From assembly GCA_038893995.1 (NCBI GenBank), contig JAWAQK010000001.1, forward strand, positions 43,776 to 107,775: 64,000 nt of DNA. The letters run 5' to 3'. Of the stretch, positions 3,209 through 61,610 are shown piece after piece. Made by a program: the position numbers and the translations under genes. Under the pieces are notes generated by a model that was not told the DNA's origin, ran no database searches, and was given only the letters and a program-made list of their open reading frames with translations. This stretch comes from Candidatus Thorarchaeota archaeon. GTDB lineage: Archaea > Asgardarchaeota > Thorarchaeia > Thorarchaeales > Thorarchaeaceae. Each line of letters starts with the position of its first letter. Within the stretch, counting starts at the first letter, position 1.

Positions 3209-4801
3209 TCAGCGTCCCCCCATTAGACCCATCGCAGCAAGCCTCAACAGTACTTGCTCAAGCAGCTCAGTCTTAAGGGTAGTCTGGCTCTCGAAGACAC
3301 CTATGTAGGCCTCTCGTTCCTTGCCAAGGTCATAACAGGTAGAATCATCAATGTCGATCAGTATGGCCGGGACTCCTGTGGCGACAAAGTCATCATGGTG
3401 TTTGCAGAAGAATCCCTCACAACAGGACCCCACAAACCCCCTTGCGCCCCTTGCCTTGAACTCGTCAATGGTCGCGATCAGATGCTCGAAGTTCTGAATG
3501 GTACGATAGGGCACCCCGATCTTCTCTATGGTTTCTATCACAGTGCCTACAGTGCAGCCTCCACAGACTGAGCAGCCCTCTTTGCGTCGGTACTCGCACT
3601 CGACCAGCTTGGCACAGTAGGGTAGCAGTACGTAGTCAAACCTCTGCCGACCCAGATGCTCGGGGGAGAAGTTGACGTACATGAGATGGTTGGTCTCATC
3701 GAGCGACAGCCCTAGTTGAGTGAATGCCTGCTTTCGAATGGCCTCAACTATGACGTCTGCCAACTCTTGTGGCTGAATGCCGACCATCACCGCGCCCGAC
3801 TCTGCAAAGAATGACTCGACCTCGTGGCGTATTGTAGACTCGTCAGTGGAGATGTTCTTTAGTCTCGCCTCGAGGTCCATCATGGCCCTCTGAGGAAACA
3901 CCTGAAAATCACCAGTCAGCAGGCTACTCACGATGAAACGACCTGCACTGTCTATAGAGAGAGAGGCTCTCACGAGCCCGCCGGGAGTCTTCCTGACCGC
4001 ATTTACGTGTCCAGTGGACTCTGGTCTTCGACGCTCTAAGAAGATCCACTCATCAGACTGGAAGAAGGGCAGGCTCCTCTCATATGTCCGGATCTCTTCT
4101 TCAAGCAGGCCACCAGGAACCAGTCTGATTCCAAGGACGCTCTCGAAGCCCTCTGCGACTGTACTCTTGATCTCAGCCAATGACGGAGTGTATCCAAGTT
4201 CTCGTGACAACCAAGTGACACGGTCTCTCACACTCTCGATCTCCTTGTCCTTCAACTTCTCCATGGGAATCCTCAGTGACTTGAGCATCAGCTCAAGGTC
4301 GAAATCTATTAGTAGAGTTCCCTGATACATGAAGGACCCGCCTCTCTCGGTCCCTCCGGTCCCCGATATCTTCCGCCCACCTACCTCGATGTCGTTCCTG
4401 GGCCTGAATTCTGCACTGACACCGAGTTTCTTGAGCGCAATTACGACTGCGGAGCAGAGGGTCCGCGCAAGCCAATCGAGGTCCCGGCCCATCTCTGCAA
4501 TGCCTGGTGTCCTCTTGTCAGCATAGATCTCCCAGCCAAGACACTTTGGAGTGAACAGTATTGCACCGCCACCAGTTATGCGTCGATTGATGTCGACGCC
4601 GGTCCTGCGGCAATAGTCGATCCGGATCTCTTGTTCGACAGACTGGTGATAGCCTACAAGGGCAACAGGGGGATTGAACTGTAGGAAGCGTAGTGTATTT
4701 GGAGATATGCCGAGACTATGACACTCCAAAAGAGTGTCGTCCATAGCCATGTTCTGTGCGCCGGTAAGCACACCTGTGTCAAGAAGCCTCCACTCCTTCA
4801 T
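3209..4801 (-). CDS. lplA: Lipoate-protein ligase A (catalytic plus C-terminal accessory domain) fused to a roughly 170-aa Cys-rich C-terminal domain.
   Basis: Sequence MKEWRLLDTG...AQNMAMDDTLL...TLRFLQFNPPVALVGYHQSVEQEIRIDYCRRTGVDINRRITGGGAILF matches LplA/LipB-fold ligases. The extra C-terminal region carries a CAKLVECEY...CSVCGGC...GSCCEGFFCKHHDD cysteine cluster. The start is placed at the internal Met (MKEW), giving an ATGA-type overlap with the stop of the upstream gene at 4803. The ORF track gives 4918 as the longest start. Confidence 0.75.
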   Translation of the reverse strand: MKEWRLLDTGVLTGAQNMAMDDTLLECHSLGISPNTLRFLQFNPPVALVGYHQSVEQEIRIDYCRRTGVDINRRITGGGAILFTPKCLGWEIYADKRTPGIAEMGRDLDWLARTLCSAVVIALKKLGVSAEFRPRNDIEVGGRKISGTGGTERGGSFMYQGTLLIDFDLELMLKSLRIPMEKLKDKEIESVRDRVTWLSRELGYTPSLAEIKSTVAEGFESVLGIRLVPGGLLEEEIRTYERSLPFFQSDEWIFLERRRPESTGHVNAVRKTPGGLVRASLSIDSAGRFIVSSLLTGDFQVFPQRAMMDLEARLKNISTDESTIRHEVESFFAESGAVMVGIQPQELADVIVEAIRKQAFTQLGLSLDETNHLMYVNFSPEHLGRQRFDYVLLPYCAKLVECEYRRKEGCSVCGGCTVGTVIETIEKIGVPYRTIQNFEHLIATIDEFKARGARGFVGSCCEGFFCKHHDDFVATGVPAILIDIDDSTCYDLGKEREAYIGVFESQTTLKTELLEQVLLRLAAMGLMGGR

Positions 4802-4802
4802 C

Positions 4803-5825
4803 TCACTGAGCCTCAACAACTGCTGTGAACAGCGAACAACACTCATCAGACAAGACCACGCGGAGACCTCTCTTTCTCGCATAGTCAAATGCCTCTGGTG
4901 TGGGATATGCGATGGCACTCACCCCCGCATCTATCGCCAGACGATCAGTGAGGACACGGTGTTCTCCCAGTGGTCTTGCACAGCCGAGGATGATAGCCCG
5001 TTCGGGCATCGCGAACCTAGATGCTAGCAAGACCCGTGCTATGTCAATGGGCTCCGGCGGACGCACACCGGTCATCGGAGTCTCATCGAGGGGCATGAAT
5101 GCTACCACGACTACGGACTTGGTCTTGTGCCTCGAGATCAGTCTGATTGCGTTGCCCTCGCCCCTGAGACGGCCAAAATAAAGACCGACAACAACGTGCG
5201 GTACGATCTCAACACCATTCTCCTCCAGTAGATCCATTGATCGGTCAAGGGACTCTGGGCCCATATCAAGGTGATATATGTCATGAAGGGTCTCACGGTC
5301 GCCGATTATGTCAATCATGGCACCATCAACCCCTGCATCAGCCAGTCCCCTGGCGACGTCGGGATACACAATTCCGGTGTGTACCACCAGGTGGAGACCG
5401 AGTTCCCTCTTCACTCTCTTCATGACCTGCGTGTATCGTGATATGGGAGTGTTGCCAAGCCGCGTAGATCCCCCGCTGACCAGTATTCCCTTGCCACCTC
5501 TCCTGACGACTTCCAAGCATATCTCCCACAGCTGCTCCGGCGTCCTGGCAGGGAGCATACTCTCAAGGAGCTTGCCCCTGCAGTGCTCACAGTTGAGAGA
5601 GCACTCCGTACCTGTGACCGAAACGCTCGGGAATCTGAAGATGTTCGTGCCCGAGTAGAAGTCAGTCTCATAGTGTCGCATGCCTGGCATGTGAAATGAT
5701 ATCACGTCGGAGAACCTCTCCCGTGTCAGGCTGTAGGCCCGACTGAACAGGTTCTCAAGGACCTCGACCGGAAGGTCCAGGCACTCCTCAACGGACGGAA
5801 ATGTCTCAGTCAAACTCCGGCTCAT
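4803..5825 (-). CDS. Radical SAM protein. It is a candidate LipS-type lipoyl synthase component.
   Basis: CSLNCEHC (Cx3Cx2C) near the N-terminus and a TIM-barrel-like G-rich region. 340 aa. Sits in the same operon as lplA and a second radical-SAM gene. The archaeal two-component lipoyl synthase LipS1/LipS2 is the known precedent. Confidence 0.55.
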   Translation of the reverse strand: MSRSLTETFPSVEECLDLPVEVLENLFSRAYSLTRERFSDVISFHMPGMRHYETDFYSGTNIFRFPSVSVTGTECSLNCEHCRGKLLESMLPARTPEQLWEICLEVVRRGGKGILVSGGSTRLGNTPISRYTQVMKRVKRELGLHLVVHTGIVYPDVARGLADAGVDGAMIDIIGDRETLHDIYHLDMGPESLDRSMDLLEENGVEIVPHVVVGLYFGRLRGEGNAIRLISRHKTKSVVVVAFMPLDETPMTGVRPPEPIDIARVLLASRFAMPERAIILGCARPLGEHRVLTDRLAIDAGVSAIAYPTPEAFDYARKRGLRVVLSDECCSLFTAVVEAQ

Positions 5826-7080
5826 CCATCCTATACTCTAGCGAATAGTCCCAGATCTGGGTCCGGATCGTATTCAGGTCGTCGTCTGTTGGCGGAAAGG
5901 GCAGGTTTCTCCAATGACCTATGGAGGCCTGGTAGGGTGTGCAGTTACCCATGGGCCGGTTGCATGCATACTTATGGTTCGGACTCGAGCAGCCAGACGT
6001 CATGAAGGCCTCGCCTCTCGAGATCGTCTGGTCCAGCACCTGTGACGGTACCCCGAAATCAATCAGTTGCCCCATTCTGTTGAACTTCATCTGATCGGCC
6101 CTCGCAATGCCCTCGTTGATCATGTAGCGGGCCAGCTGGACTCTCCGATACGCGCCGAGGGGTGGCTGATGGTGTGTTTCCATGATTGACCCCTCCTCAG
6201 GAAAGAAAGAGAATAGATGAGTGTCTGCACCCCTGTCATATGCGCTCTGTATTGTCTCTATCATCTGCTGCTCGGTCTCGCCTAGCCCAACTATGAGATG
6301 GACACCCACGTTGTGTCGTCCGAATATCTCTACGGCCTCGTCCAGTGTCTTCCAATATCGCTCCCACTTGTGTGGGCCGCGAACACCGCTTCCACGTAGC
6401 CTGTCAAACAGATCAGGCGTAGCGGCATCAATGGCCACCCCAATCTTGTCCGCACCGATTTCTCTGACCCTTGCCAGCCACGCACGATCGACTATCGTAG
6501 GCGTCACCAACACTGAGATGTGGTCCATCACTTCCCGCAGGCTAGACACGACCGTGAGTGCGTCCTGACGCGCCCTGCCGGTTGTGATCATTGAAACGCA
6601 GATTCTCTCCACGTGAGGACATTTCCTGTCGGCAATTGCAGCCTTCACATCGTCAACGGAGACAATCGGCCAATCGACTCGAATGAAGGTGTTATTGACC
6701 CAGTCCGTATTCGTGACTCGAGAACCTGAGAGGCCGCAATAGGCACAACGCGCATGACACCCCTCGTCATACGTGAGCAGCAGATTGATGCAGTAGAGCT
6801 TTGCATCCCTGTAGAATCGGCCGTTCGCCTTACCCATTGTCATATAGGCGGCTAGACTCGTGCGGACAAACTCCGGTGACTCGAGGATCCGATCTTCCTG
6901 ATTGACAACATCACGTACGGACATCTTGGGGGTCACCGACAACGTAGAGAGCCACCTTTGCGCTCTTATTACAGTTTCCATAGGAATATTGCAGGGGGCA
7001 TGAATGACTGCGCCTCTGCGATTGCACCAGGGTCCAGGCTGAGTGAGCACTACTCTTAAGTCTGCAGAGACAGACCGCAT
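5806..7080 (-). CDS. Radical SAM protein. It is a candidate LipS-type lipoyl synthase component.
   Basis: CHARCAYC (Cx3Cx2C). 424 aa. Overlaps the downstream radical-SAM gene by 20 nt and sits in the lplA operon. The start is uncertain (internal Mets at METVIRAQ and MSVRDVV). Confidence 0.55.
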   Translation of the reverse strand: MRSVSADLRVVLTQPGPWCNRRGAVIHAPCNIPMETVIRAQRWLSTLSVTPKMSVRDVVNQEDRILESPEFVRTSLAAYMTMGKANGRFYRDAKLYCINLLLTYDEGCHARCAYCGLSGSRVTNTDWVNNTFIRVDWPIVSVDDVKAAIADRKCPHVERICVSMITTGRARQDALTVVSSLREVMDHISVLVTPTIVDRAWLARVREIGADKIGVAIDAATPDLFDRLRGSGVRGPHKWERYWKTLDEAVEIFGRHNVGVHLIVGLGETEQQMIETIQSAYDRGADTHLFSFFPEEGSIMETHHQPPLGAYRRVQLARYMINEGIARADQMKFNRMGQLIDFGVPSQVLDQTISRGEAFMTSGCSSPNHKYACNRPMGNCTPYQASIGHWRNLPFPPTDDDLNTIRTQIWDYSLEYRMDEPEFD

Positions 7081-15639: not shown

Positions 15640-17724
15640 TTGGCTCATCTGTACAAGAGATTCGTTGGAGAGAAGGTCGTAGGTCTCCTTGAGAACATCA
15701 AGAACATCAGGAACTGTACAGTGATTGCCCACATCGATCATGGAAAGACGACCCTGACAGACTCCCTCATTGCAGCGTCGGGCCTCCTATCGGACGACCT
15801 GGCTGCGTCTGTGAAGCTCCTAGACTACGATGCCATTGAGCAACAGAGAGGCATTACTATCAAGGCATCCAGCATATCGCTGGTCCATAGGAGGAACGGA
15901 CAGGACTTCCTAATACACCTGATCGACACACCGGGCCACATAGACTTCTCATTCCACGTCACCAAGGGACTCAGGATGGCAGACGGAGCCATCGTCGTGG
16001 TTGACATAGTCGAGGGTATAATGGTACAGACTGAGACTGTGACACGTCAGGCGGCCACTGAACTCGTCAGACCAGTGTTGTTTGTCAACAAGATAGACAG
16101 ACTGATATCTGAGAAGCAATACGGAGCCCAGAGGATCGCGTCAGAGGCGGGTCGAATCGTAACAGAGTTCAACGCAATGCTAGGCAAGTATCTACCCGAT
16201 GAGATCCTCAGTGAATGGGAGGTGTCATTTCGACGAGGGTCCCTGGTCATCGGTTCGGCTCTGGACAAATGGGGAATTGACATCGTTGCACTCATGCATC
16301 GGGCCGGAAACGATCGGCAGCCCAGGAAACTCGAGAGAGCACTCATGGAGATCCTTGAGGATATCGTGTCCCTATACAGAGAGGGTCAGGAGCAGGTCCT
16401 CTCGAGAAGATATCCACTGGCCAGGTGCGTCCTAGACGCAGTCGCTGATAGCGTGCCCAGTCCGGATGTTGCCCAGTCATATAGAGTCAGACACTTCTGG
16501 CGTGGCGATACTGAGTCTGACGTTGGTAGGGCCCTGCTGAGATGCGAGAGAGATACGGGCTGCATAGTGTCCGTGGGCGATGTTCAGTCAGACAGACATG
16601 CTGGGACTGTCGCAGCCGTACGCGTGATGACTGGCAGGCTCACAAGAGGTCATGAACTACGGAATCTGAGGACGGGGAAGGTGTCAAGAACCCTGCAGGT
16701 AGGGCTATTCATGTCCAAGACCAGGGTTCCTGTCGATACAGTCCCTGCGGGAAATCTCGCATTCATCACTGGCATTTCCGAAGTGGCAATTGGCGACACG
16801 CTCGTGGAGGGGGACATGCCCAAGATCCAGCCGCTTGATGAACCTCAGTATCCAACTGAACCCGTCGTCACCTACAGTGTGGAGCCCAGGAACCTCGCGG
16901 ACCTGAAGAACATACAGGAACCAATCATGAGGATGGTCCAGTCGGACCCTTCACTCGAGTTCTATGTGAGTCCGGACTCTGGCGAAAACCTGCTCTCGGG
17001 AGCTGGCGAACTTCACATCGAGATAGTGGTGGAGAAGTTGGCCAGAGAGGGAGTGGAGATAGTCGTTGGGAAGCCGATGGTAGTACTCAAGGAGCAGATG
17101 GCCCACGATGGGGAGACCCAAGAAGCGGGAGGAGGAGATGTCAGCTGGTTCAGGGTCCGTGCCCTGCTCACACCAGAAGGACTTGAGTCACCGCCTCCCG
17201 GTACCGTATTCTCAGATGCAAGACAGGGATGCTACCTAGTGGACCAGACAGGCACCATCAACGCACAAAGTCCGGCGTTCGAGTGGGTGGTCGACGGATT
17301 CAAGACCCTGATACGTAATGGGCCTGTGTCCGGGGAGAGGATGAGACGGTTGACAATCAGGATCGAGGATGCCACGATAGTTGCAAGCACACCTGAAACA
17401 TCGTGGAGGGATGTCACACAGCCACTGATTGATGCGTCTAGGGCCAGCATCCTGAGTGGTAAGCCCATGCTGATGGAGCCATGGACAAGGCTTGAGATCA
17501 ACACCCCTGGCCAATACGTCGGTGACGTGAGTGCAATAGTAGCCCGTAGGGGAGGCAGGATAATCGATCTGACTTCGACCAGGTTCATGTTCAAGATAGA
17601 GGCCGAGATACCAGTGAGACAGTCATTCGGATTCTCGACGGAGCTGAGGACTGCGACATCAGGATGGGCGACCTGGGGCGCGCGCTCGGGCGGATATCGA
17701 CCAGTCAGCAATGATAGATCATGA
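15640..17724 (+). CDS. Divergent EF-2/EF-G-family GTPase paralog.
   Basis: G1 AHIDHGKTT, G3 DTPGH, G4 NKID and five-domain length (694 aa). Domain IV reads EDATIVASTPETSWRDV with no His at the diphthamide position. It lies 5 bp downstream of the acyltransferase gene. Confidence 0.8.
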   Translation: MAHLYKRFVGEKVVGLLENIKNIRNCTVIAHIDHGKTTLTDSLIAASGLLSDDLAASVKLLDYDAIEQQRGITIKASSISLVHRRNGQDFLIHLIDTPGHIDFSFHVTKGLRMADGAIVVVDIVEGIMVQTETVTRQAATELVRPVLFVNKIDRLISEKQYGAQRIASEAGRIVTEFNAMLGKYLPDEILSEWEVSFRRGSLVIGSALDKWGIDIVALMHRAGNDRQPRKLERALMEILEDIVSLYREGQEQVLSRRYPLARCVLDAVADSVPSPDVAQSYRVRHFWRGDTESDVGRALLRCERDTGCIVSVGDVQSDRHAGTVAAVRVMTGRLTRGHELRNLRTGKVSRTLQVGLFMSKTRVPVDTVPAGNLAFITGISEVAIGDTLVEGDMPKIQPLDEPQYPTEPVVTYSVEPRNLADLKNIQEPIMRMVQSDPSLEFYVSPDSGENLLSGAGELHIEIVVEKLAREGVEIVVGKPMVVLKEQMAHDGETQEAGGGDVSWFRVRALLTPEGLESPPPGTVFSDARQGCYLVDQTGTINAQSPAFEWVVDGFKTLIRNGPVSGERMRRLTIRIEDATIVASTPETSWRDVTQPLIDASRASILSGKPMLMEPWTRLEINTPGQYVGDVSAIVARRGGRIIDLTSTRFMFKIEAEIPVRQSFGFSTELRTATSGWATWGARSGGYRPVSNDRS

Positions 17725-17728
17725 GAGC

Positions 17729-20032
17729 TCAGGAACGTATGTAGGACCTACGGTTGAGGACCGAACCGAGATGGACCATCACTCTACGCTCCACCATCGC
17801 AACACCATCCATCATCCGGACTGCACGAGAGATATTCGAGAGCACTGCATTCATGTACGGTTGTACCCTTGTCGGCTCTCCTTGAGCCATCATCCCTATG
17901 TAGGCATTGGTTATCTTTACTAGTCCTAGCCAGTCCTCGGGAAGTAGGAATGAAGACTCAAGGAACATATCATCTGATGGAATGGTTTCGGTGTGATCCA
18001 CAGACACCTCGTACTGAACCTCAAGGGCACTTAGAAGTCGCGAGAGCATATTTGTGAACGACGTTGCAACTGAGAGAATGAACTCACGAGACTCTGAGAT
18101 CGATGAGTCTTCTGAATGACATCTTCCGAATGACACGGCAGCTTGATGCAGCAGAGGAGCCAGTTCCTGGTGATTCCTGTTCTCGAAGAAGAGTCGGATT
18201 CCACTAGCCAGCAGGGCCTGGCCCTCCCAGTATCTTGTCAGGACGGGGTCAATATCATGTACCGAGAACTGCTCAGGACTGACGATGCCACTGACTGTTT
18301 CCGTACCAAGAGGTTGGATGTTTATCTTTGCTGTAGCAAAGGCCGCCATCAGCCTACCTACATCTCTGAGTTCAGAGTTGCGCTCCACGAGACTGAGGGC
18401 CCTTCTCTTGAGTTGGAACCAGTCACCGAACATCAGAGGCACAGCGAGTGATATTCCTTCAACGATCGAGGGACTGTCAGGAGGGCACAAGTCAAGGATC
18501 ATCCTATCCAGATCAAGAATGACCCTGCGCAGTCGCTCAGGAATGAATAGTCTATGCCTCAGAGAGAGCCAGGCAATATCGTACAATGCGATTGCGGCCT
18601 CGACAAGAGCACGCGAGTCAGAGGGAAAGAGTCGCATGTAGCGCAGTAGAGATTCACTCAGGAGATCGTTCGCACGGTCATCAATCGTTTCGGACTCACA
18701 GATTGCCGCGAGGCCCAATCCAACCATGGAGCTCAGTAATGCAATCTCCAGGCATTGACCCTTGTTGAGTAGAGATGTCCTCATCTCTACAGAACGCTGA
18801 AACGACTCAACTGCGGCAGACCGAAACTCTGCAGACTCCGAGAGTAGACAGGCCCAGCCAATAGCATGCAGACAACTGGCGATCTCAGACATCATGTCGT
18901 TCTCTGGAGACTTCAGGTCGTCTGCGACTTTCTGAGCCCGGCGGAGGTAGTCGATTGCAAGTGCTGTGCCGTCATCACTTCCGGTCAGGCTGTGGGCATG
19001 GCCGAGACCTACTAGGCAGCGCAGCAATGCCATCCGCTGCTCTCTTGTCGGGTCCTCGATCGATTCATAGACTGCGAGAGCCGCGTTCAGGCGTTCTACG
19101 GCCTGGGGTATCGCCTCCCGCCACCCACCAATGAGTATCGTCGAACCTACTAGAAGATATGCTGCCGCGAGATCGCCCCTGGTCATAAGACCTGCATCCA
19201 CGCTTCTCTCGTACTCCTGCAGTGCACGGTCAGCAAGGTCACGGGCAGTCTGATAGCTCACACCTTCGTCTCGCGTCTCATTTATCGCAAGCTGGAGAGC
19301 CAGTTGAATCCGTGATGCGGGCGGGAGTTCGGAGCCCATCTCTGATTCAAGCTGTTTCAGTAGACTCCTGGAGCGATCGAAGAGTTCCAGGTCAGTAAGG
19401 ACGGAGGCGAGGTCCAGGGTGAGGTCCAGCAAGAGGTCTCTGAATCCCAGCTGTCGTGATACTGAGAGTAGCCGGTCCAGGAGTGGTTCGGCACACTCTG
19501 CAAGGCCTTCATCCATCAGGGACCTGGCCAGGTAGTGCACCTCGGCCACTGCCAACTTGGTGAAGGATATCTGGTCACGGGCGATGATCGAGTCTAGCGT
19601 ATGGAGTGTTTCGTCAGCCAGGAATGCCAAGAGGGGACGTAGACCATGCCCTAAGGAGACTGACATGGACTGGCCCAGCTCACCAAGCAGGTCAATCAGA
19701 ATTGGCAGAGCCTCAAGATCGGGAAGGTCCTCCGCCGCCGTACGTCTGTACTCATTGGTGAACCTGGTGTCCAGTAGAGATATCAGCTCTGACAGCTCCG
19801 ATGTCTTATCAAATGAGTGACGCACGATGAGTTCAAGGAACTTGTAGTTTGCAAGTGCCGGCCTTCTGAGAAGCACTTCCTCGAGGGCTCGTGCCAACTC
19901 ATGACCCAGTTCATGAGAGTCGGGGGAGAAACGTGAGATTCCTTGAAGTGCAGCGAGACCATCGTCGAGGGAGACAGATGCACACAGTAGGTCCCTCAAG
20001 ATTGTCCGAATCCTTGGATCCAAACAGTTCAC
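17729..20032 (-). CDS. Large helical-repeat (TPR/HEAT-like) hypothetical protein.
   Basis: 767 aa, Leu/Ala/Glu/Arg-rich, predicted all-alpha, no catalytic motifs. Sits 47 bp downstream of the KaiC-like pair on the same strand. Confidence 0.5.
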   Translation of the reverse strand: MNCLDPRIRTILRDLLCASVSLDDGLAALQGISRFSPDSHELGHELARALEEVLLRRPALANYKFLELIVRHSFDKTSELSELISLLDTRFTNEYRRTAAEDLPDLEALPILIDLLGELGQSMSVSLGHGLRPLLAFLADETLHTLDSIIARDQISFTKLAVAEVHYLARSLMDEGLAECAEPLLDRLLSVSRQLGFRDLLLDLTLDLASVLTDLELFDRSRSLLKQLESEMGSELPPASRIQLALQLAINETRDEGVSYQTARDLADRALQEYERSVDAGLMTRGDLAAAYLLVGSTILIGGWREAIPQAVERLNAALAVYESIEDPTREQRMALLRCLVGLGHAHSLTGSDDGTALAIDYLRRAQKVADDLKSPENDMMSEIASCLHAIGWACLLSESAEFRSAAVESFQRSVEMRTSLLNKGQCLEIALLSSMVGLGLAAICESETIDDRANDLLSESLLRYMRLFPSDSRALVEAAIALYDIAWLSLRHRLFIPERLRRVILDLDRMILDLCPPDSPSIVEGISLAVPLMFGDWFQLKRRALSLVERNSELRDVGRLMAAFATAKINIQPLGTETVSGIVSPEQFSVHDIDPVLTRYWEGQALLASGIRLFFENRNHQELAPLLHQAAVSFGRCHSEDSSISESREFILSVATSFTNMLSRLLSALEVQYEVSVDHTETIPSDDMFLESSFLLPEDWLGLVKITNAYIGMMAQGEPTRVQPYMNAVLSNISRAVRMMDGVAMVERRVMVHLGSVLNRRSYIRS

Positions 20033-20079
20033 CCGCGATGCGGGTTGACTATTTCATTGGACTGTTAAAGACTTCCGTA

Positions 20080-20787
20080 TCAGCTGAGTCTGAACTCGAC
20101 CCACGCGCGCTTGGTCTCAGTCCCTCTCATTCTCTCCATCCGCACGAAGAACTTGGGAGTATCGCTAGTATCATCCACCCTGAATCTCAGGACCGCATCT
20201 GCGGAGTACGCGAAGCTGGCATACGTCTTGTCGTCATGTACCCCCTCCTCGAGAATGTACATGATACTGTGAGAACCCTGAGTCAGTCGACCGCTGAGTC
20301 TTTGCACGGCCTGAGGTAGAGCTGCAGCACTGGAACTCATGATGAGTGTCGTCAGGCTGTCAACCACGACTCTTGCAACTACAAGTTTCTCCAGCGCCTC
20401 CGTGAGGACGATTCCAAGCTCTGTTATGTCGTCGACCTTTGAGAGTGAGTAGGGACTTGTGCTCTTGACGCCCATCCGGTCCGAATACCCATCTACAAAG
20501 GTGAACATACCATTTCGCTCGTGCTTCTCGATCGGCCAACCATGTCGGCTCATGTCGTTTCGTATCACTCTGGGAGATACATCTGTCGTCACAAAGACCG
20601 CAGGGAAACCCAGCACTAGCCCCTCGGCGAGATATGCCTCGGCATACGTGGTCTTTCCAGAGCCTATCGGCCCCAGTAGCAATATCGACTGTTGAGTCAG
20701 TTGGCCAAACTCGACCAGGTCTCCTAATGTGGGGCTCACCTTGACAGGGTTGCGTTCGTCGATTCGACTATCATCTCGAGCCGTCAA
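20080..20787 (-). CDS. KaiC/RadA-like single-domain RecA-superfamily ATPase.
   Basis: Walker A LLLGPIGSGKTT. Walker B region VVVDSLTTL. 235 aa. Confidence 0.7.
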   Translation of the reverse strand: MTARDDSRIDERNPVKVSPTLGDLVEFGQLTQQSILLLGPIGSGKTTYAEAYLAEGLVLGFPAVFVTTDVSPRVIRNDMSRHGWPIEKHERNGMFTFVDGYSDRMGVKSTSPYSLSKVDDITELGIVLTEALEKLVVARVVVDSLTTLIMSSSAAALPQAVQRLSGRLTQGSHSIMYILEEGVHDDKTYASFAYSADAVLRFRVDDTSDTPKFFVRMERMRGTETKRAWVEFRLS

Positions 20788-20814
20788 TCAATTCACCTCT
20801 CGGATCTAGCTGAT

Positions 20815-21558
20815 TCAGCTGCCGGGGCTTATCTCAGTAGGCCAGACCCGAATACCCTCGTCAGTGATTCTCATGGAGTGTATCCTGGAGCTGTGCTTGG
20901 ATCCTCGGAGCTTCAATACCTCGATCGAACGGGAACGCGACGTGTCGCTTATCTTCTCGTTGTAGAGCACAATGACGCCTGATGCAAGGAAGGCTTCGAT
21001 GTCAAATACGCCCAGTCCGGTGTCCTGTGCAGGTATCTCTGATGTCAGCAGCAGGGTGGCACCTGTGCCTGTTATCTTGGAGCACATCTTGAAGAACTCT
21101 TCTCTGAGAATGTCTCTGCTCCTGAACTTGTATGCAAGGATTGATAGGGTGTCTATGACTACTCTCTTGGCATTCACCTTCTTCATGTTGCTCAGGATGA
21201 TTGACACTAGTGCCGACAGGTCGAAGCTCGGATACTCCTCCACCATGACGGGAGAGGGACGTGACGGTGACAGGTCTACGATCGCCAGCATACCCTGGTT
21301 CTCTAGTTTCTCGAGGTCCATGCCAAATCTCAACATGTTGCGCTTTATGAGGTGAGGGGGCTCCTCGAGAGTGACAAGCACGCCAGGTTCTCCGTATTCG
21401 GTGGCTCCCTTATACAGGAACTGGTTTGCGAGAATGCTCTTCCCAGTACCTGCCTTTCCTGCAATGAGTATGGTGTCACCTCTGGGAAAACCTCCCTCTA
21501 TCAGTTCGTCGAGTCCCGGGATTCCGGTCTTGACTCTATCAATTTGGTAGCCGGTCAT
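20815..21558 (-). CDS. KaiC/RadA-like single-domain RecA-superfamily ATPase.
   Basis: TGIPGLDELIEGGFPRGDTILIAGKAGTGKS (Walker A) and VVIDTLSIL (Walker B). The start is either the internal Met (MTGYQIDRV, 21558) or 21588. Confidence 0.7.
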   Translation of the reverse strand: MTGYQIDRVKTGIPGLDELIEGGFPRGDTILIAGKAGTGKSILANQFLYKGATEYGEPGVLVTLEEPPHLIKRNMLRFGMDLEKLENQGMLAIVDLSPSRPSPVMVEEYPSFDLSALVSIILSNMKKVNAKRVVIDTLSILAYKFRSRDILREEFFKMCSKITGTGATLLLTSEIPAQDTGLGVFDIEAFLASGVIVLYNEKISDTSRSRSIEVLKLRGSKHSSRIHSMRITDEGIRVWPTEISPGS

Positions 21559-21910
21559 CTGGAACACCTCTACGTTTTCTGTATCCAAGGATCATCCTGA
21601 GGATTGACTCTGGTTCGGGTATGCCGGTTATGGAGGCACCTCCGATCATTATCGTCGGAGCAGCGAGTACCCCATAGTACTGTGCGACTTCTGGCTCTTG
21701 GACCACATCAATCTCTCGCAGAGTGAACATGTCAGTATCAAACTCGCCAAGTATGTCTAGCAGTACCTGTTTAGCTCGCGGACAGAAGGGGCATTCATCG
21801 TGGCTAAAGAAGAGGACCTCAACCTTCGAGGATTCCTTCCCATCTTTGGAGCACCCTTCTTCATCAGACGGAGCCAACGAGACGCACTCCCTGTCCTGTG
21901 TGACCTCCAA
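21539..21910 (-). CDS. Thioredoxin/glutaredoxin-like protein (CPFC active site).
   Basis: VLFFSHDECPFCPRAKQVL ... PTIMIGG is a thioredoxin-fold pattern. 123 aa with an acidic N-terminal extension. Same operon as Roadblock and the KaiC-like genes. Confidence 0.55.
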   Translation of the reverse strand: MEVTQDRECVSLAPSDEEGCSKDGKESSKVEVLFFSHDECPFCPRAKQVLLDILGEFDTDMFTLREIDVVQEPEVAQYYGVLAAPTIMIGGASITGIPEPESILRMILGYRKRRGVPDDRLPN

Positions 21911-21948
21911 CTGTGGAGCTGTGCTCTATTGAATGTTATTGCGTCGGC

Positions 21949-22335
21949 CTAACGACGATATGCCATCATCTTTCGTATCTTGGTCGCCACTTTCCCGAGC
22001 GACCGAGAGTGATATCTGAGATGCCGAGGCATCACTGCGGCCAAGAGGAAGGACTGCCCACTGTCGACCAATATCTTGCGGACGACAAACTTTCCCTCCG
22101 AACAACGAATGGAGATCTCGGAGAGCTCCCCAAGCAGCAGTTCGTTCCGGAGACGCTCAACGGAGGAGGCCACATAGCCAGACATTGCAGCAACGATGTC
22201 ACGGTTTGTGGTGGGGGATGCTGAGGATGCCATGAGTAGGCCGTCATCTCGCGCAAGGATTGATGCGACATAGCCTCCGTTTCTGACCATGTCATCAAGC
22301 ATCTCGGTCAATGCCCTGTAGTCAGGTCTTTCCAT
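21949..22335 (-). CDS. Roadblock/LC7 (MglB-like) domain protein.
   Basis: 128 aa. GGYVASILARDDGLLMAS...AAMSGYVASSVERL...SEISIRCSEGKFVVRKILVDSGQSFLLAAVM matches the Roadblock/LC7 alpha-beta-alpha pattern. Confidence 0.7.
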   Translation of the reverse strand: MERPDYRALTEMLDDMVRNGGYVASILARDDGLLMASSASPTTNRDIVAAMSGYVASSVERLRNELLLGELSEISIRCSEGKFVVRKILVDSGQSFLLAAVMPRHLRYHSRSLGKVATKIRKMMAYRR

Positions 22336-22482
22336 GTGAATCGCTCCGTCATCCCTAATCGATTGCGCATTTTTCTTTTAAAGGATGAGGTCACATCCCC
22401 TGCTCCAGTATCTTGCAGTTGCACTCACAACATAGTTTTAAGTTAGGCTCCAAATGTGAGTCAGACGAGGATGTGATGTCGT

Positions 22483-23031
22483 TTGACTGCCGAATATAGA
22501 TTCAAGGTGGTCATGCTCGGTGATGGCGCGGTAGGGAAGACTGCGCTCACCAACATGTTCACGCAGGGCCACTTCATCTCCGAATACAAACGGACGATTG
22601 GGTCAGACTTTGCAGTCAAACGTGTCTCAGTACCCCAGAGGAATGCACAGGTCACTCTCCAGGTATGGGACTTGGCAGGACAACCACGATTCGAGATAGT
22701 CAGGCAATCTTTCTATCGTGGAGCAAGAGGAGGATTGCTTGTCTACGATGTCACACGACGCAGGACATTCCTGAACCTCGATCACTGGAGACAGGAAACT
22801 AAGAACAGTCTGAGTCGCGAAATACCCCTGGTCGTGGTCGCCAACAAGGTGGATCTGACAGGCGCACGCGTCGTGACGAGGGAGGAGGGAGAACAGTATG
22901 CTGCCAAGAGCGGACTCATATATGTGGAGGCAAGTGCACTCACAGGCCAGAACGTAGAGGATGCATTCGTGGAACTATGTGTCGAGATGATCGACGAGTC
23001 AAAGTCGGAAGCGAGATCTCAGACAGGTTGA
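22483..23031 (+). CDS. Rab/Ras-like small GTPase (Asgard type, no C-terminal prenylation motif).
   Basis: G1 GDGAVGKT. Switch I YKRTIGSDF (Rab-like TIGxDF). G3 WDLAGQ. G4 NKVDL. G5 EASA. 182 aa. Confidence 0.8.
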   Translation: MTAEYRFKVVMLGDGAVGKTALTNMFTQGHFISEYKRTIGSDFAVKRVSVPQRNAQVTLQVWDLAGQPRFEIVRQSFYRGARGGLLVYDVTRRRTFLNLDHWRQETKNSLSREIPLVVVANKVDLTGARVVTREEGEQYAAKSGLIYVEASALTGQNVEDAFVELCVEMIDESKSEARSQTG

Positions 23032-24179
23032 CCCTTCAAGAGGCCTAGATGCTTCTTGCACTGCCAGACGATATAGAAGATGGTCTTGTCCTGCAACACC
23101 TCACTGCCATATTGTGACATCAGGGACTCGAACCTGCGTACCAGATCAACCCTTCTCTCGCCTGCAGTATCGCTCTCGATCTCTCGCAGCAGTGCCTGGA
23201 GGGGCTCAATCATTGCAGTCCTGTCGACGATTTCCCACCGCCTTATTGCTCCGGTGGACTCACAGGTCAGGAACTCGTTCGAATCTGCCACCCATTCTAG
23301 AGAGTCCGGTTCGCCCCGTGTCATTGTCTCGGCCTGCCTAGTGAAATCACTTGTCCGCCACAGGAAGATGTTCTTGTCAGCAGACCCAGACGCAATAAGG
23401 GACCCATCGTGGTTGAATCCCACACAGCGGACCTCTTGTGTATGTCCTGTGAGTGTCTTCTCATGTCTGAGCTGCCCGTCTGAGGCGTCCCAGACCATGA
23501 CCGTCTGATCAGAAGATGCCGAGGCCACCCTGGTACCGTCCCTGGAAAAGCGCACCTGATGCAGTGCAGATCTGTGTTCTTGGAGCCACTCTATCCTCTC
23601 ACCAGTCGTCGGATCCCAGAGACCAATCATCGCATCGACACCACCGGACACTATCCGATCTCCACGAGGATCCCAGTCGCAGGACACTACGTATAGAGAA
23701 TGGCCCTTGAGCTGTCTCAGTGGCTTGGAACTGCCGATGTCCCACACCATGAGGGTCGTATCGCCACTCGATGACACTAACCTATCGCAGTCGGGAGAGA
23801 AGGCGAGCGACAATATGGGATACCGATGACCCTCGAGACGACATATCAACTCTGCACTCCTGACGTCCCAGACCTTGATAACCCTGTCAACACCACCAGA
23901 CGCTATCACATCACTCCGGGGGCTGAATGCAAGGGCTGTGCACAGGAAGTCGTCTGTGATTCGCTGGACCTCTTGGCAGTCTCTCGCATCGTACAGACGT
24001 ATTGTTCGGTCCTGATGAGCAGCAGCGAACATGCGTCCCACTCTGTTGATGGTGAAACGACGAATGATGTCGTCAGCAGTTTCCGCCTCGGGTCTTAGCA
24101 GCCTAGGACGAAGAAACAATGATGGTACGGACTCCGTCATCTTGCTCACCAGAGTGATTGTCATCGTCTCAAGCAGCAT
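23019..24179 (-). CDS. WD40 repeat (7-bladed beta-propeller) protein with a C-terminal helical tail.
   Basis: Seven GH...WD-type repeats (VWDVRS, MVWDIGS, IGLWDPTT, VMVWDASD, IFLWRTSD, IRRWEIVD). The C-terminal roughly 70 aa are non-WD. Starts 82 bp downstream of the second Rab-like gene on the same strand. Confidence 0.8.
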   Translation of the reverse strand: MLLETMTITLVSKMTESVPSLFLRPRLLRPEAETADDIIRRFTINRVGRMFAAAHQDRTIRLYDARDCQEVQRITDDFLCTALAFSPRSDVIASGGVDRVIKVWDVRSAELICRLEGHRYPILSLAFSPDCDRLVSSSGDTTLMVWDIGSSKPLRQLKGHSLYVVSCDWDPRGDRIVSGGVDAMIGLWDPTTGERIEWLQEHRSALHQVRFSRDGTRVASASSDQTVMVWDASDGQLRHEKTLTGHTQEVRCVGFNHDGSLIASGSADKNIFLWRTSDFTRQAETMTRGEPDSLEWVADSNEFLTCESTGAIRRWEIVDRTAMIEPLQALLREIESDTAGERRVDLVRRFESLMSQYGSEVLQDKTIFYIVWQCKKHLGLLKGQPV

Positions 24180-24261
24180 ATCTAAAAAGAGTTGTGAGGA
24201 TGCGATGGGCCCCTCAAGTCAGTATGGTATGGGTGGCTGGTGGTCCGAAGATGAGCATGGC

Positions 24262-24834
24262 TCAGAGAGTACTCTGGCCAATCGACTCGACCATCATGAT
24301 GATGAGCTCAATGAATGCCTTCTCCACGTTGTGTCCGGTCTTGGCAGATGTTTCAAGGAAGACCGTGCTGACCCCACTTTCTCTGAGCGCCTGTGTGAAC
24401 TTCTCACCCTCCTGCGTCGTGACTATCGATCCCTTCATGGCAGGATTGTCCTTGAACTGGTCCCGGAGATCAGTCTTGTTGCCGATGACTACAATAGGAA
24501 TGGTCTTGCCTGTGTTCGCCCAGCACTCCTCAAGCCAGTTGGGAAGATTATCAAATGACGAACGTTCCACAGTCGAGTATACAGCCAATGCTCCCTGGGC
24601 ACCCTTGTAGAAGGTTGATCGTACGTTCTTGAAGTGAGCCTGTCCAGCAAGATCCCATATCTGGATGTGCACCTCTGTGCCACTCTCAAGTGCCAGTTTT
24701 TTCACTGCGAAATCGGCGCCGATGGTGACCATGTATGAGGCCTTGAAACCTTCGCCCATGTAGGTCCGACGGAGCGAAGTCTTACCTACTGAGCCGTCGC
24801 CCATGAGAACTATCTTGAACAATGCTCTCGGCAT
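24262..24834 (-). CDS. Rab/Ras-like small GTPase.
   Basis: G1 GDGSVGKT. TIGADF. WDLAGQ. GNKTDL. ETSAKTGHNVEKAF. 190 aa. Confidence 0.8.
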   Translation of the reverse strand: MPRALFKIVLMGDGSVGKTSLRRTYMGEGFKASYMVTIGADFAVKKLALESGTEVHIQIWDLAGQAHFKNVRSTFYKGAQGALAVYSTVERSSFDNLPNWLEECWANTGKTIPIVVIGNKTDLRDQFKDNPAMKGSIVTTQEGEKFTQALRESGVSTVFLETSAKTGHNVEKAFIELIIMMVESIGQSTL

Positions 24835-57887: not shown

Positions 57888-60113
57888 CTAACCAGTACGC
57901 TTGTAGACGAATCGAGACCAGTTGCTAATGGTCGGAACTTCAGCTGGCAGATTCTTCCTCTTTCGGATGTCGGCTATCTTCGACTCACTCAGATGGGACG
58001 GTAGCGGTTCGAACCCGCGGAACTCGTATCCAAAGAAGCTTCTGCCTGACGTCGCGCCACGAAACTCATCCGCGATACCGATGGTCTCTGCGGTAGGCAA
58101 GGTCCCTCTGACTGTTACTGTATCCTCCTCTGCATCGATGGTGAGAATCTGTCCCCTGTGGCCGGTCAAGACCTTGATCACCTGCCCCTGAGTGTCTGTA
58201 GGGGTCTTGATGTCCACGTTCAGGACGGGTTCGAACAGCACAGGGGCTCCGGTCAGAAACGACATGTTGAGTGCCGCTCCAGTCATCGTTGCAACTTCGC
58301 TGTAACCCGTGTGGGCAGGATCAGTGTGTATTGTGGCATCTGTAATGACTGCTTTTACGCCCATGACGGGCTCGCGTGCCAGTGGACCCCCATCAATGAA
58401 TTCCCTGAACGTCGCCTGGACATACGGAAAGATCCGATCAAATCGCTGCACTCCAGTCATTGCGTCAATGAGCATCGACGTCTCGTATATGTCAATGATC
58501 TTTCGGGCCTCCTTCGGGTCCCATCCTGCCTCTGCACGAAGTATCTCTGCCCTGTCCTTTGCGTTCTGTTCCGCAGTGATCTTCTTCTTGCGAATTAGCT
58601 CGAGAGTCTTCTCGTCCAGTGGCTCGAGGTACATCTTGATGCGGTTGTGACCGTTTGGTGACTTGGTGTGGAACTCCTCGCCGCGCTGAGTCATGCGTTC
58701 CCTGTAAACTATGATGGGCTCTGAGACCTTGATCTTGACCTGCTCGTCGATTCGCTTGGTCAATATCTCGATCTGAAGCGGGTCAATACCATCAAGGCGA
58801 TACTCTCCTGACTCCTTGTCGTGAACGAACCGAGCAGTAGGATCAGCCATGATCCACTTGGAAACGACCTCGCCAAGTCTGGCTATGTCCTGTGGGTCCA
58901 CGGGCTTTATGCTCCTGCTAACTACCGGCTCACAGACGTACTCTATGGCCTCGAAGCCGGGGATATCAGAGTCTGGGTCAACAAAAGACTCACCCGAGGG
59001 ACACATGAATCCAAAGATCGAGAACAGGTTGCCTGCAGGTACTTCGTCAATGTCAAGGATATCAGTTATCTCCTGGACACCAAGCCTGCGCACTCGGGCG
59101 TTCTGTTTCATATTGACTAGTCTGATCTCCTGACCTGACCTCAGGGTGCCCGAGAAGAGACGACCAATGAGGGTGGGCCTCTTGCTCTTGGGATCTACGA
59201 ATATCTTCGTTATCATACCGACAAGGGGTCCCTTCGGATCGCAGTTCAATAGTGCCTGACCCGCAGGACTATTCAGGTCACCTCTCCATATTCGCGGAAT
59301 CTTGTACTTCTGGGCCTCCCTGGGGTTTGGCAGGTGCTTGACTATCATCTCGAGTAGGGCATCGTCAAGCGGTAAGTTCTCCCTGAGCCATCTGTCGTCG
59401 CCAGACTGATACTTCTCAAAGACGACCATAGGATTGACGTTCTTCCTCCTGAGGACGTTGGACGTGAAGGCCCATCCAGTCTTGGCGCTACCTATGGCAA
59501 CACTGCCTGCCTGGAAGCTCACCTGCCAGTCCTTTGCATGCTCGGGCGGTGCCACCTTTCTGATCAGCTCGTTGACCTTGGCAATGATCGCATCAATACG
59601 TTCTGATACTTTCTTGGGTGGTAGCTTCAGCTCATTGATTAGTCTGTCGACCTTGTTGACGAAAAGGACTGGTTTGCAACCCTCACCACCCACTGAGAGA
59701 CGGATGTTTGTTTCAGTCTGGGTCATGACACCCTCGAGTGCGTCCACCAGCAGAACAACACCATCACTGGCACGCAACGCGCGTGACACCTCGCCAGTGA
59801 AGGACAGGTGACCTGGCGTGTCCGAGAGCTGAACTAGGTACTCCTCTCCGTCGATCTCAAAGTTCAGCAGCACTACGGATGTGAATATCGTGATACCTCG
59901 GGCCTTCTCTTCCTCATCACTGTCAGTGAGTAGGGCCTGACCAGCCTGTGCATCGCTCATGAGACCTGCTGCACGCAGAAGATAGTCTGACGTAGTCGTC
60001 TTGCCATGATCAATATGTGCACTGATCGATATTATCCGCTTGTGCTCAAAGTCGTCAGACTTGATGAGATTCTTGATGGCCTCAGGATCCTTGATCTTGA
60101 CCAATGTGTTCAC
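57888..60113 (-). CDS. fusA: Translation elongation factor 2 (aEF-2), the canonical-type paralog.
   Basis: AHIDHGKTT, DTPGH, NKVDR. Five-domain layout. Domain IV reads DATIHTDPAHTGYSEV. No in-frame ATG upstream of the G-domain. A GTG start at 60113 gives a typical roughly 30-aa lead before G1. The ORF track runs to 60182, also from GTG. Confidence 0.8.
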   Translation of the reverse strand: MNTLVKIKDPEAIKNLIKSDDFEHKRIISISAHIDHGKTTTSDYLLRAAGLMSDAQAGQALLTDSDEEEKARGITIFTSVVLLNFEIDGEEYLVQLSDTPGHLSFTGEVSRALRASDGVVLLVDALEGVMTQTETNIRLSVGGEGCKPVLFVNKVDRLINELKLPPKKVSERIDAIIAKVNELIRKVAPPEHAKDWQVSFQAGSVAIGSAKTGWAFTSNVLRRKNVNPMVVFEKYQSGDDRWLRENLPLDDALLEMIVKHLPNPREAQKYKIPRIWRGDLNSPAGQALLNCDPKGPLVGMITKIFVDPKSKRPTLIGRLFSGTLRSGQEIRLVNMKQNARVRRLGVQEITDILDIDEVPAGNLFSIFGFMCPSGESFVDPDSDIPGFEAIEYVCEPVVSRSIKPVDPQDIARLGEVVSKWIMADPTARFVHDKESGEYRLDGIDPLQIEILTKRIDEQVKIKVSEPIIVYRERMTQRGEEFHTKSPNGHNRIKMYLEPLDEKTLELIRKKKITAEQNAKDRAEILRAEAGWDPKEARKIIDIYETSMLIDAMTGVQRFDRIFPYVQATFREFIDGGPLAREPVMGVKAVITDATIHTDPAHTGYSEVATMTGAALNMSFLTGAPVLFEPVLNVDIKTPTDTQGQVIKVLTGHRGQILTIDAEEDTVTVRGTLPTAETIGIADEFRGATSGRSFFGYEFRGFEPLPSHLSESKIADIRKRKNLPAEVPTISNWSRFVYKRTG

Positions 60114-60686
60114 CTTGGAATTACTTCGACAACCCCCATCACACAACAGGCCAGCTGCGAAGAAGTCTGGCGGGGGAACCACGTGGGCGTGGCACTTGGA
60201 GCGACGTCCAGACTATCCAATAAAAGATTATCGTCATGACTCGAGGAATTCAGGACGGCTCCAGTCGCGAGAGGCCATATGTCGTTTCTACGACCATGAG
60301 ACATGACTGCAGAGCACTCACTGAATAGGAACACATAATCTAGAGTGGTCCGACATATGGCCGCAGGTTTAGATGTATGCGGGACAGTGACCACCAGAGT
60401 GGAGCGACCCGCACCTGTCGTTCTCGCCGGGAGGGAAGCAGACTTGACCAACAGGAAGTATACGTCCAGTAAGGACTACGGGTCGTATCTCCGTCGGAGG
60501 AGACTTATAACTTACCTATAAAGATATTCTTCTGAGCATTGGGGGAACGATCTGTCGCAAAATCGAGGAGCCACTCAAGACAGTTTGGAAGTATCGGCAC
60601 GAGTCAGGGACCCCAACTCGAGAACGATTCTGGAGGCCTAGCTGAGCTGAGGCTGCGAGAAGGACATCACAAAACGAACAGTTGAA

Positions 60687-60875: not shown

Positions 60876-61610
60876 ATGCCAAGATGGACAGAGCTGACGC
60901 ACCTGAGTTTTGTCAAGGCGATATCAGGCACCAGGGTCGCCATTCTTCCCACTGGATCCCTGGAGGCCCACGGAAATCACCTGCCTCTTGGTACCGACAC
61001 AATACTGCCGGAGTACCTTGCTGACAGGGTGAGCCGAAGGACGCATGCGCTGGTACTGCCGCCCATCCCATTCGGCGACAGCTGGGCCCTTGAGGGGTTT
61101 GCCGGTACCGTGACTGTAAGGCACCAGACGCTGGTCGAGTTCTACTGCGAGGTCATGGAGAGCATCTTCAGGAACGGCCTGAGCAGAATCGTCGTCCTGA
61201 ACGGTCACGGGGGTAACACGTCTGCGATAGAGTCTGCTGCGAAGACTGCCACCCAGGACAACGACAGGATCGTGGTGATAGTCAACTGGTGGGTGGACCT
61301 CGCCAAGGAAACCAGACGCGAGGTCCTAGAGACCCCGGAGGGACACGCTGCTGAGGACGAAACTTCCGAACTCATGTATGTCAGGCCGGACCTCGTCGAC
61401 ATGACTGACCTGAAGTCAAGTACAGTACTGATGAGATACCGGGTGATATCAGCAGAGCATAGGAATGACCTCTATCGGTACGCTGCAAGTGGTGATCCAG
61501 GGAAGGCCAACCCGGAAAAAGGAAAAAGGATTCTCGAGTCTGCCGAGGACGAACTGGTGCATCTCGTGGAGGATCTTGAACGCGACCTCCTGCCCGTTGA
61601 GAGAGGCTAG
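60876..61610 (+). CDS. Creatininase-family amidohydrolase.
   Basis: VAILPTGSLEAHGNHLPLGTD and VLNGHGGN match creatininase-family metal-binding motifs. Start at the internal ATG 60876, so the ORF no longer overlaps the tRNA. Confidence 0.65.
   Translation: MPRWTELTHLSFVKAISGTRVAILPTGSLEAHGNHLPLGTDTILPEYLADRVSRRTHALVLPPIPFGDSWALEGFAGTVTVRHQTLVEFYCEVMESIFRNGLSRIVVLNGHGGNTSAIESAAKTATQDNDRIVVIVNWWVDLAKETRREVLETPEGHAAEDETSELMYVRPDLVDMTDLKSSTVLMRYRVISAEHRNDLYRYAASGDPGKANPEKGKRILESAEDELVHLVEDLERDLLPVERG

Follow-up and report, generated by a model that had tools for sequence, protein, structure and literature searches.

The genomes of Asgard archaea carry dozens of genes for eukaryote-like small GTPases, and a locus in a Candidatus Thorarchaeota genome raises the question of whether the regulator of one such GTPase can be recognized from the gene that lies beside it. 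The locus is part of a stretch of 64,000 nucleotides (contig JAWAQK010000001.1, positions 43,776 to 107,775; called 'the window' hereafter, with all coordinates given in its numbering unless another locus is named), in which a gene for a Roadblock/LC7 protein and a gene for a Rab-like small GTPase stand head-to-head. We conclude that this pair is a well-defined GTPase/Roadblock module with hybrid features that is ordinary in kind. To the reading that the Roadblock protein would act as the cognate MglB-type regulator of the adjoining GTPase, a protein of the type of the crystallized Thorarchaeota Rab ('Thor-Rab'), we give about even credence. The locus supplies one concrete, matched candidate with which it becomes directly testable how an Asgard Rab-like GTPase is regulated, and that candidate is the next-door Roadblock protein rather than the unlinked paralog that was crystallized and later modelled.

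A divergent Roadblock–GTPase gene pair

The Roadblock gene (positions 21949–22335, minus strand; 128 amino acids) matches the Pfam family Robl_LC7 (PF03259) with 26.9 bits at a cutoff of 23, and is the first gene of a minus-strand operon. The GTPase gene (22483–23031, plus strand; 182 amino acids) matches Pfam Ras with 172.9 bits, followed by Roc and Arf. Its start at position 22483 is a TTG, the first start codon past an in-frame stop, and most orthologs align an ATG at the same place. The two genes are separated by a divergent spacer of 147 bp (22336–22482). The head-to-head arrangement and the spacing reported in the initial annotation of this DNA are thus borne out by the open reading frame (ORF) listing, the sequence and the Pfam assignments. 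Since the window contains about 57 genes, including three for small GTPases and one for a Roadblock protein, a single adjacency of this kind is not significant when taken alone (we estimate its probability by chance at about 10%).

The GTPase is orthologous to Thor-Rab and carries an MglA-type arginine

The best match of the GTPase in the PDB is 'Thorarchaeota Rab' (7EZB, 7EZD and 7EZE; E = 7.6e-79 over residues 1–175, with about 70% identity and with R37 retained), and by sequence we identify it as an ortholog of the crystallized Thor-Rab. Its 60 best PDB matches consist of Thor-Rab followed by 59 eukaryotic Rabs, with no MglA among them. In pairwise scoring it reached 125 bits against human Rab1A and 87 bits against HRAS, versus 27 bits against the MglA homolog that is encoded elsewhere in the window. 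On the basis of these matches and scores we regard the GTPase as Rab-like and not MglA-like, in agreement with the initial annotation. Neither of the general hallmarks of the MglA family, overall similarity and a G3 motif of the form T/GxPGQ, is present, the G3 motif being WDLAGQ.

The G1 to G5 motifs of the Ras superfamily occur in their usual order (GDGAVGKT at residues 13–20, T38, DLAGQ at 63–67, NKVD at 121–124 and SAL at 151–153), and every motif that had been quoted for the protein could be located, including KRTIGSDF at residues 36–43 and WDLAGQ at 62–67. The RabF motifs of Rab proteins are IGVDF, KLQIW, RFrsiT, YYRGA and LVYDIT. The GTPase contains the similar stretches IGSDF, TLQVW, RFEIVR, FYRGA and LVYDVT; Rab similarity together with RabF-type features was likewise described for Thor-Rab by Tran et al. 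2024 (PMC10933270). The sole Rab feature that is missing is a prenylation site, whose absence had been noted before: the C-terminus reads ...DESKSEARSQTG (the protein ends ...SEARSQTG), with no cysteine beyond C166. Because it lacks one or more C-terminal cysteines for geranylgeranylation, we call the protein Rab-like rather than a Rab.

Directly before its switch-I (G2) threonine, T38, the GTPase carries an arginine, R37, and its WDLAGQ motif provides a glutamine, Q67. The surrounding YKRTIG sequence is invariant in the orthologs aligned (42/42), and R37 aligns with the arginine in the GRTTFFDF sequence of the window's MglA homolog. An arginine at this position defines the group-1 MglA proteins, in which it acts as an intrinsic arginine finger positioned by MglB (Wuichet and Sogaard-Andersen 2014, PMC4316618); the Rab-like GTPase possesses this defining residue. 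Thor-Rab is reported to be the sole Rab paralog of its genome with the arginine, and is also the one Asgard Rab-like GTPase that has been both crystallized and assayed for its GTPase rate, which without aid is as slow as that of Rab11B (Tran et al. 2024, PMC10933270). The second Rab-like GTPase of the window, encoded 1.2 kb away, has a valine at the position of R37, and most of its orthologs have an isoleucine. Taken together, the identity, motif and locus data indicate that one protein combines a DxxGQ motif and the fold of a Rab with an MglA arginine and a Roadblock neighbor.

The Roadblock protein has a complete predicted Roadblock/LC7 fold

An AlphaFold2 model of the Roadblock protein, generated with 35 homologs (pLDDT 83, pTM 0.79), displays the complete alpha-beta-beta-alpha-beta-beta-beta-alpha fold: a helix at residues 7–20, strands at 24–29 and 34–39, a second helix at 45–66, strands at 73–78, 81–89 and 95–102, and a third helix at 110–125. 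The full topology of the model and the match to PF03259 above its threshold both assign the protein to the Roadblock/LC7 fold. Foldseek searches with the model returned MK-D1 Roadblock3, p14/LAMTOR2 and MglB with a probability of 1.00 and template modelling (TM) scores of up to 0.77–0.80. Helix alpha-2 bears three invariant small residues (A49, A50 and G53). The chain stops three residues past helix alpha-3 with no C-terminal extension, and so lacks the additional C-terminal helix of Myxococcus xanthus MglB, which serves both as GTPase-activating protein (GAP) and as guanine nucleotide exchange factor (GEF).

The nearest structures by sequence are those of Asgard Roadblock proteins and of LAMTOR2 (E values of 2e-4 to 2e-3), LAMTOR2 being the best match outside Asgard archaea (about 1e-3). 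The crystallized Thor-RB (KXH72322, 7F8M) is a different paralog and matches the window Roadblock just at E values of 2e-3 to 2e-4. The closer relatives of the subfamily that were collected in single-sequence and profile searches (all with E values of 1e-39 or lower) are, for nearly all of the records listed, labelled Thorarchaeota or unlabelled; three bear other labels (P0125, Hodarchaeota; P0128, Lokiarchaeota; and L042, Hermodarchaeota, the last from the genome scan described below). Judged from these searches, the subfamily appears to be restricted to the Thorarchaeota lineage.

The gene pair is conserved across Thorarchaeota

In a genome scan, using one genome per species, GTPase orthologs (62–74% identity) turned up at 44 loci, nearly all of them from Thorarchaeota-labelled or unlabelled Asgard metagenome-assembled genomes. 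At five of these loci the contig stops just upstream of the GTPase gene, leaving 39 that could be assessed. A Roadblock ortholog was present upstream on the opposite strand in 38 of the 39, and was directly adjacent in 35, with a spacer of 126–283 bp. A scan with a hidden Markov model of the family found one Roadblock ORF per locus, and a second assembly with independent gene calls has the identical gene order. The adjacency is therefore not peculiar to a single genome, and the Roadblock gene lies within four genes of the GTPase gene, the neighborhood by which MglA and MglB genes have been paired. Of the loci collected in the scan, the two closest to the Thor-Rab gene itself (L014 and L044; 85% identity to KXH73347) also have the Roadblock neighbor.

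In a survey of 1,611 prokaryotic genomes, 404 of 488 MglA genes had an mglB homolog no more than four genes away (PMC4316618), which suggests that a Roadblock gene beside a small GTPase gene usually marks a working pair. The divergent Roadblock gene of 38 of the 39 genomes, directly adjacent in 35, argues for an MglB-like partner, and the retention of this arrangement makes the Roadblock protein the obvious candidate regulator of the Thor-Rab-type GTPase.

Each gene has its own predicted core promoter

The spacer appears to contain two back-to-back core promoters. A TATA-like box for the Roadblock operon, TTTAAAAG, was located by motif match on the minus strand at positions 22375–22382, 39 nt upstream of the ATG, and orthologs keep the consensus TTTAATAGG at an equal distance. 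A further motif, ATGCGCAA (22363–22370, minus strand), lies a few bases downstream of this box and recurs at the equivalent position in 13 of the 39 loci, which belong to several subclades; it could be a site for a regulator or an element of the initiator region. For the GTPase gene, a motif match on the plus strand places a B recognition element/TATA-like element, ACATAG TTTTAAGT, at positions 22430–22443, which is 39 nt upstream of the TTG; spaced equally, its orthologs have ACAGTAG followed by (A/G)TTT(T/A)A(A/G)(G/T). Both TATA-like boxes are retained in loci whose spacers carry insertions. The genes, initially taken to share a promoter region, thus do not literally share a promoter, each having a conserved TATA-like box of its own, upstream of the start codon by about 39 nt. 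In other genomes this spacer is a hot spot for insertions.

The eight-gene island and the rest of the window

The pair is part of an island of eight genes on both strands (17729–24834) that Thorarchaeota conserve. Its products are, in order, a helical-repeat protein, two KaiC-like proteins of which the first is degenerate, a thioredoxin-like protein, the Roadblock protein, the Rab-like GTPase, a WD40 protein and another Rab-like GTPase. Second in the Roadblock operon is a gene (21539–21910, minus strand) for a thioredoxin/glutaredoxin-like protein, recognized by both Pfam and NCBIfam, with a CPFC motif; the sequence CPFCP is conserved in 37 thioredoxin-like sequences. An identification of this protein as KaiB was considered and rejected, since matches to KaiB were far under threshold and the redox CPFC is conserved. 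The next two genes encode a single-domain KaiC-like ATPase (20815–21588, minus strand; Pfam KaiC PF06745, 241 bits), in which the Walker A motif, the catalytic EE pair and the Walker B motif are conserved, and a second, degenerate KaiC-like protein (20080–20787, minus strand; Pfam KaiC, 98.6 bits). The latter keeps a Walker A motif (GPIGSGKT) and has VTTDVSP in place of the TLEEPP that contains the catalytic EE pair of the ATPase, a substitution suggesting that it probably binds nucleotide without being active itself, as a partner to the KaiC-like ATPase next to it.

The last operon gene (17729–20032, minus strand) encodes an all-helical, TPR-like repeat protein of 767 amino acids with weak matches to TPR and PPR families, and has orthologs with 38–45% identity in at least 26 loci. 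An AlphaFold2 model from its single sequence contains about 32 helices with a pLDDT of 54, too poor for a fold search. No DENN, TBC or other GAP or GEF domain was found in this protein by Pfam searches of 23 orthologs and a PDB profile search. Likewise, none of the island proteins matched DENN in searches of Pfam and of PDB-sequence profiles, which a very divergent DENN domain would escape.

On the other side of the pair, the WD40 gene (23019–24179, minus strand) encodes a beta-propeller of 386 amino acids (Pfam WD40, 166.9 bits) whose helical tail at the C-terminus is conserved. The gene converges on that of the GTPase, which it adjoins in most loci; the 3' ends of the two genes overlap by 13 bp in the window (23019–23031) and are separated by a gap of about 10–90 bp in other genomes. 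The gene for the second Rab-like GTPase (24262–24834, minus strand; 190 amino acids, 41% identical to the first) shares the strand of the WD40 gene, lies upstream of it and is conserved in 29 loci. In many Thorarchaeota these two genes are separated by an extra gene of about 420 codons without a Pfam match (for example at positions 4764–6026 of locus L081); the window has no such gene, and the gap there is 82 bp.

The presence of a genuine MglA-family GTPase elsewhere in the window, also part of the initial annotation, was verified. The ORF listed at positions 61607–62440 (minus strand) matches MglA of Thermus thermophilus and M. xanthus over its C-terminal ~180 residues (E values of 4e-34 to 1e-31; 4.4e-34 for MglA in PDB entry 3T12), and its MglA-type domain, at 61607–62152, contains the sequences GRTTFFDF and TVPGQ. 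The first ~95 codons of the ORF are of low complexity and are probably an untranslated over-extension. The gene is flanked by genes of the creatininase and aminotransferase families, with no Roadblock gene adjoining. The window also contains two paralogs of the EF-G/EF-2 family (15640–17724 and 57888–60182), the shorter of which abuts the island and is kept there in other genomes. An interpretation of the region as anti-phage defense was rejected, as PADLOC returned only incidental matches to WD40 and P-loop proteins.

Rab-like genes of other Asgard archaea

The closest relatives of the GTPase outside the clade are Lokiarchaeal GTPases with 41–45% identity, which keep the arginine (QRTIG). Two Lokiarchaeal loci, both with GTPases reading QRTIGSNF, encode a conserved coiled-coil protein of about 415 amino acids that ends in a CxxC...CxxC zinc ribbon (L047, positions 4577–5833; L049, positions 4561–5793). 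Among the 149 ORFs that flank 33 other Asgard Rab-like genes, Robl_LC7 was outside the 25 commonest Pfam families and hence occurs in at most four, and a Roadblock match was found in none of 10 small immediate neighbors of such genes. A Roadblock neighbor is not a general property of Asgard Rab-like genes, which is consistent with the literature.

In the Heimdallarchaeal loci L072 to L077 a conserved ORF of 144–146 amino acids (listed as 164 amino acids in L072) is found directly upstream of the Rab-like gene on the same strand (at about 5390–5830; 2466–2900 in L073). It has no Pfam match, and its pattern looks Roadblock/longin-like by eye, but a comparison with the Roadblock profile was not significant.

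A proposed mechanism for the pair and the alternatives to it

The binding and the GAP activity that we infer for the pair would proceed as follows. A homodimer of the Roadblock protein would attach to the GTP-bound GTPase over the switch regions of the latter. The dimer would contribute no catalytic residue of its own and would instead position the Arg37 and Gln67 of the GTPase to hydrolyze GTP, as MglB does with MglA, and a GTPase with slow unaided activity would thereby be accelerated. Because it ends after helix alpha-3 without an extension, the Roadblock protein would resemble the T. thermophilus MglB, which is a GAP only, and not the GAP/GEF of M. xanthus. The other products of the island would likely serve as upstream inputs or effectors, with the nearby KaiC, thioredoxin, WD40 and solenoid genes offering leads. 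If the pair works in this manner, it would represent a Rab-fold GTPase that uses the catalytic trick of bacterial MglA and MglB, and would bear on how the in-trans arginine fingers of TBC GAPs, which regulate eukaryotic Rabs, replaced an older intrinsic mechanism.

A number of observations weigh against an MglB-type role of the Roadblock protein. The conserved adjacency is non-specific evidence, because the whole region is collinear within the clade: EF-G-like, PolB and LarC genes that lie outside the island are also kept in place, the collinear region spanning at least 14 kb. The Roadblock gene heads a five-gene minus-strand operon, with intergenic gaps of −20 to 47 bp, to which the GTPase gene does not belong, and since each of the paired genes has its own TATA-like box they stand back-to-back without a common core promoter. 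The junction between them has received insertions in four genomes. The spacer of L024 carries a TnpB/IS605-OrfB-like gene of an insertion sequence (4625–5845) and those of L007 and L043 carry two small membrane-protein genes each, with the Roadblock ortholog still present beyond them; in L026, which is the sole exception among the 39 loci, an element bearing an integrase (tyrosine recombinase) is located directly upstream of the GTPase gene (4648–5775). In a mirror-tree analysis of 27 genomes the partial correlation between the Roadblock protein and the GTPase was 0.26, mid-range among island pairs. Bacterial MglB went undetected in the sequence search with the Roadblock protein, which sits closer to Asgard Roadblock proteins and LAMTOR2. 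Finally, a Roadblock gene was found at none of the Lokiarchaeal loci that keep the arginine, and in the two whose ORFs were read (L047 and L049) the divergent neighbor is the coiled-coil/zinc-ribbon gene. The 'MglB-MglA logic' of the initial annotation therefore stands in part: the group-1 arginine of MglA is kept and the adjacency is conserved, but that adjacency is confounded by region-wide collinearity, and the functional link between the two proteins is one that we infer.

It is possible, if somewhat unlikely, that the Roadblock protein instead serves its operon partners (the thioredoxin-like protein, the KaiC-like pair and the helical-repeat protein) as an NTPase regulator or adaptor, and that its adjacency to the GTPase gene is inherited synteny. 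The close spacing of the five operon genes and the general collinearity of the surrounding region would both fit such a role, as would the distribution of insertions, all of which fall between the Roadblock and GTPase genes and never within the operon, whose order is unbroken in every locus that covers it. The strongest residual co-variation in the mirror-tree analysis was also found among the thioredoxin-like, KaiC2 and TPR proteins (partial correlations of 0.58 for thioredoxin–TPR and 0.56 for KaiC2–TPR in the same 27 genomes), and not between the Roadblock protein and the GTPase. The Roadblock superfamily was also first put forward as one of general NTPase regulators (Koonin and Aravind 2000). 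However, we came across no report of a KaiC/RecA-type ATPase being regulated by a Roadblock protein, all characterized partners being small GTPases or, in eukaryotes, dynein. A role confined to the operon would moreover leave unexplained why the sole Rab paralog with an MglA-type arginine is the one that adjoins a Roadblock gene.

We think it decidedly unlikely that the Roadblock protein is a non-catalytic platform like Ragulator/LAMTOR2, joining the Rab-like GTPase (or both of them) to the WD40 and helical-repeat proteins and acting as a scaffold or exchange factor rather than as a GAP. The Roadblock proteins of Ragulator are heterodimeric and touch Roadblock domains that are fused to the Rag GTPases, whereas the locus has one Roadblock gene and its GTPases are single-domain proteins; in addition, one subclade (L028, L031, L032 and L034) keeps the pair but has neither the WD40 gene nor the second Rab-like gene near it. 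In favor of a platform are the standing of LAMTOR2 as the best match outside Asgard archaea (E about 1e-3), the presence in the island of another Rab-like GTPase together with a beta-propeller and an alpha-solenoid, and the fact that eukaryotic Roadblock/longin platforms are mostly GEFs or scaffolds. Very doubtful, in our estimation, is a reading in which all eight island genes would form one machine, with a KaiC-type ATP/phosphorylation switch and a redox input setting the nucleotide state of Rab-like GTPases through a Roadblock platform and with the propeller and solenoid as effector scaffold, although if true it would amount to an archaeal forerunner of the Roadblock/propeller/solenoid GTPase regulators of eukaryotes, for example Ragulator-GATOR or the intraflagellar-transport complexes.

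Comparison with known systems

The pair resembles the MglA/MglB systems of T. thermophilus and M. xanthus in that a Roadblock-fold gene lies beside the gene for a single-domain small GTPase, in the arginine before the switch-I threonine and the catalytic glutamine of G3, and in the superposition of the Roadblock model on MglB (TM up to 0.77–0.80). It differs from them in that its GTPase is Rab/Ras-like in sequence (and, for the crystallized ortholog, also in structure), with WDLAGQ rather than TVPGQ as the G3 motif, in that the genes are divergent and do not form one operon, and in that the Roadblock protein has no detectable sequence similarity to MglB. None of the 121 'Rup' prokaryotic GTPases with eukaryote-like motifs in the 2014 survey was coupled to an mglB homolog (PMC4316618).

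Roadblock/longin dimers are established platforms for small GTPases, and the Ragulator (LAMTOR2/LAMTOR3) with its Rag GTPases shares with the locus the Roadblock fold, LAMTOR2 being the best non-Asgard sequence match. The locus, however, has a single Roadblock gene and no heterodimer pair, and its GTPases (182 and 190 amino acids) are single-domain proteins that are not Rag-like. The actinobacterial conservons (CvnA-D, Mfp), which comprise a sensor kinase, a Roadblock protein, a DUF742 protein and a GTPase, likewise combine a small GTPase with a Roadblock protein inside a signalling cluster of several genes; the present locus differs in having no histidine kinase or DUF742 gene, and the conservon GTPase belongs to group 2 of the MglA family rather than to the Rab-like proteins (PMC4316618).

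An Asgard operon has been described in which genes for a LAMTOR1-like Roadblock protein and a Rab-like GTPase are joined by one for a DENN-domain protein (Liu et al. 2020/2021), and like the present locus it links a gene of the Roadblock superfamily to one for a Rab-like GTPase. The partners in the window are KaiC-like, thioredoxin-like and helical-repeat proteins, with no detectable DENN, and the window Roadblock family appears to be restricted to Thorarchaeota instead of being distributed over most Asgard lineages.

Closest to the pair are Thor-Rab (KXH73347; 7EZB/7EZD/7EZE) and Thor-RB (KXH72322; 7F8M) of Thorarchaeota SMTZ1-45, both characterized by Tran et al. 2024 (PMC10933270), who also noted that partners are hard to assign from genome layout, at least in MK-D1. 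An MglAB-like complex of Thor-Rab with a Thorarchaeota Roadblock protein, acting through the MglA-like arginine, was proposed in 2024 and was followed by AlphaFold3 models in 2026 (Dinet et al. 2024/2026). In these models a Roadblock dimer, apparently of the crystallized and unlinked paralog, docks on the GTPase as MglB does on MglA. The GTPase of the window is orthologous and the MglAB-like idea is the same, but the window Roadblock is a different paralog. Our literature search found no mention of a Roadblock gene beside Thor-Rab, of its near-universal conservation in Thorarchaeota, or of the eight-gene island with its KaiC-like ATPases. Relative to the published MglAB-like proposal for Thor-Rab, what is new here is the genomic Roadblock neighbor and the eight-gene island in which it resides.

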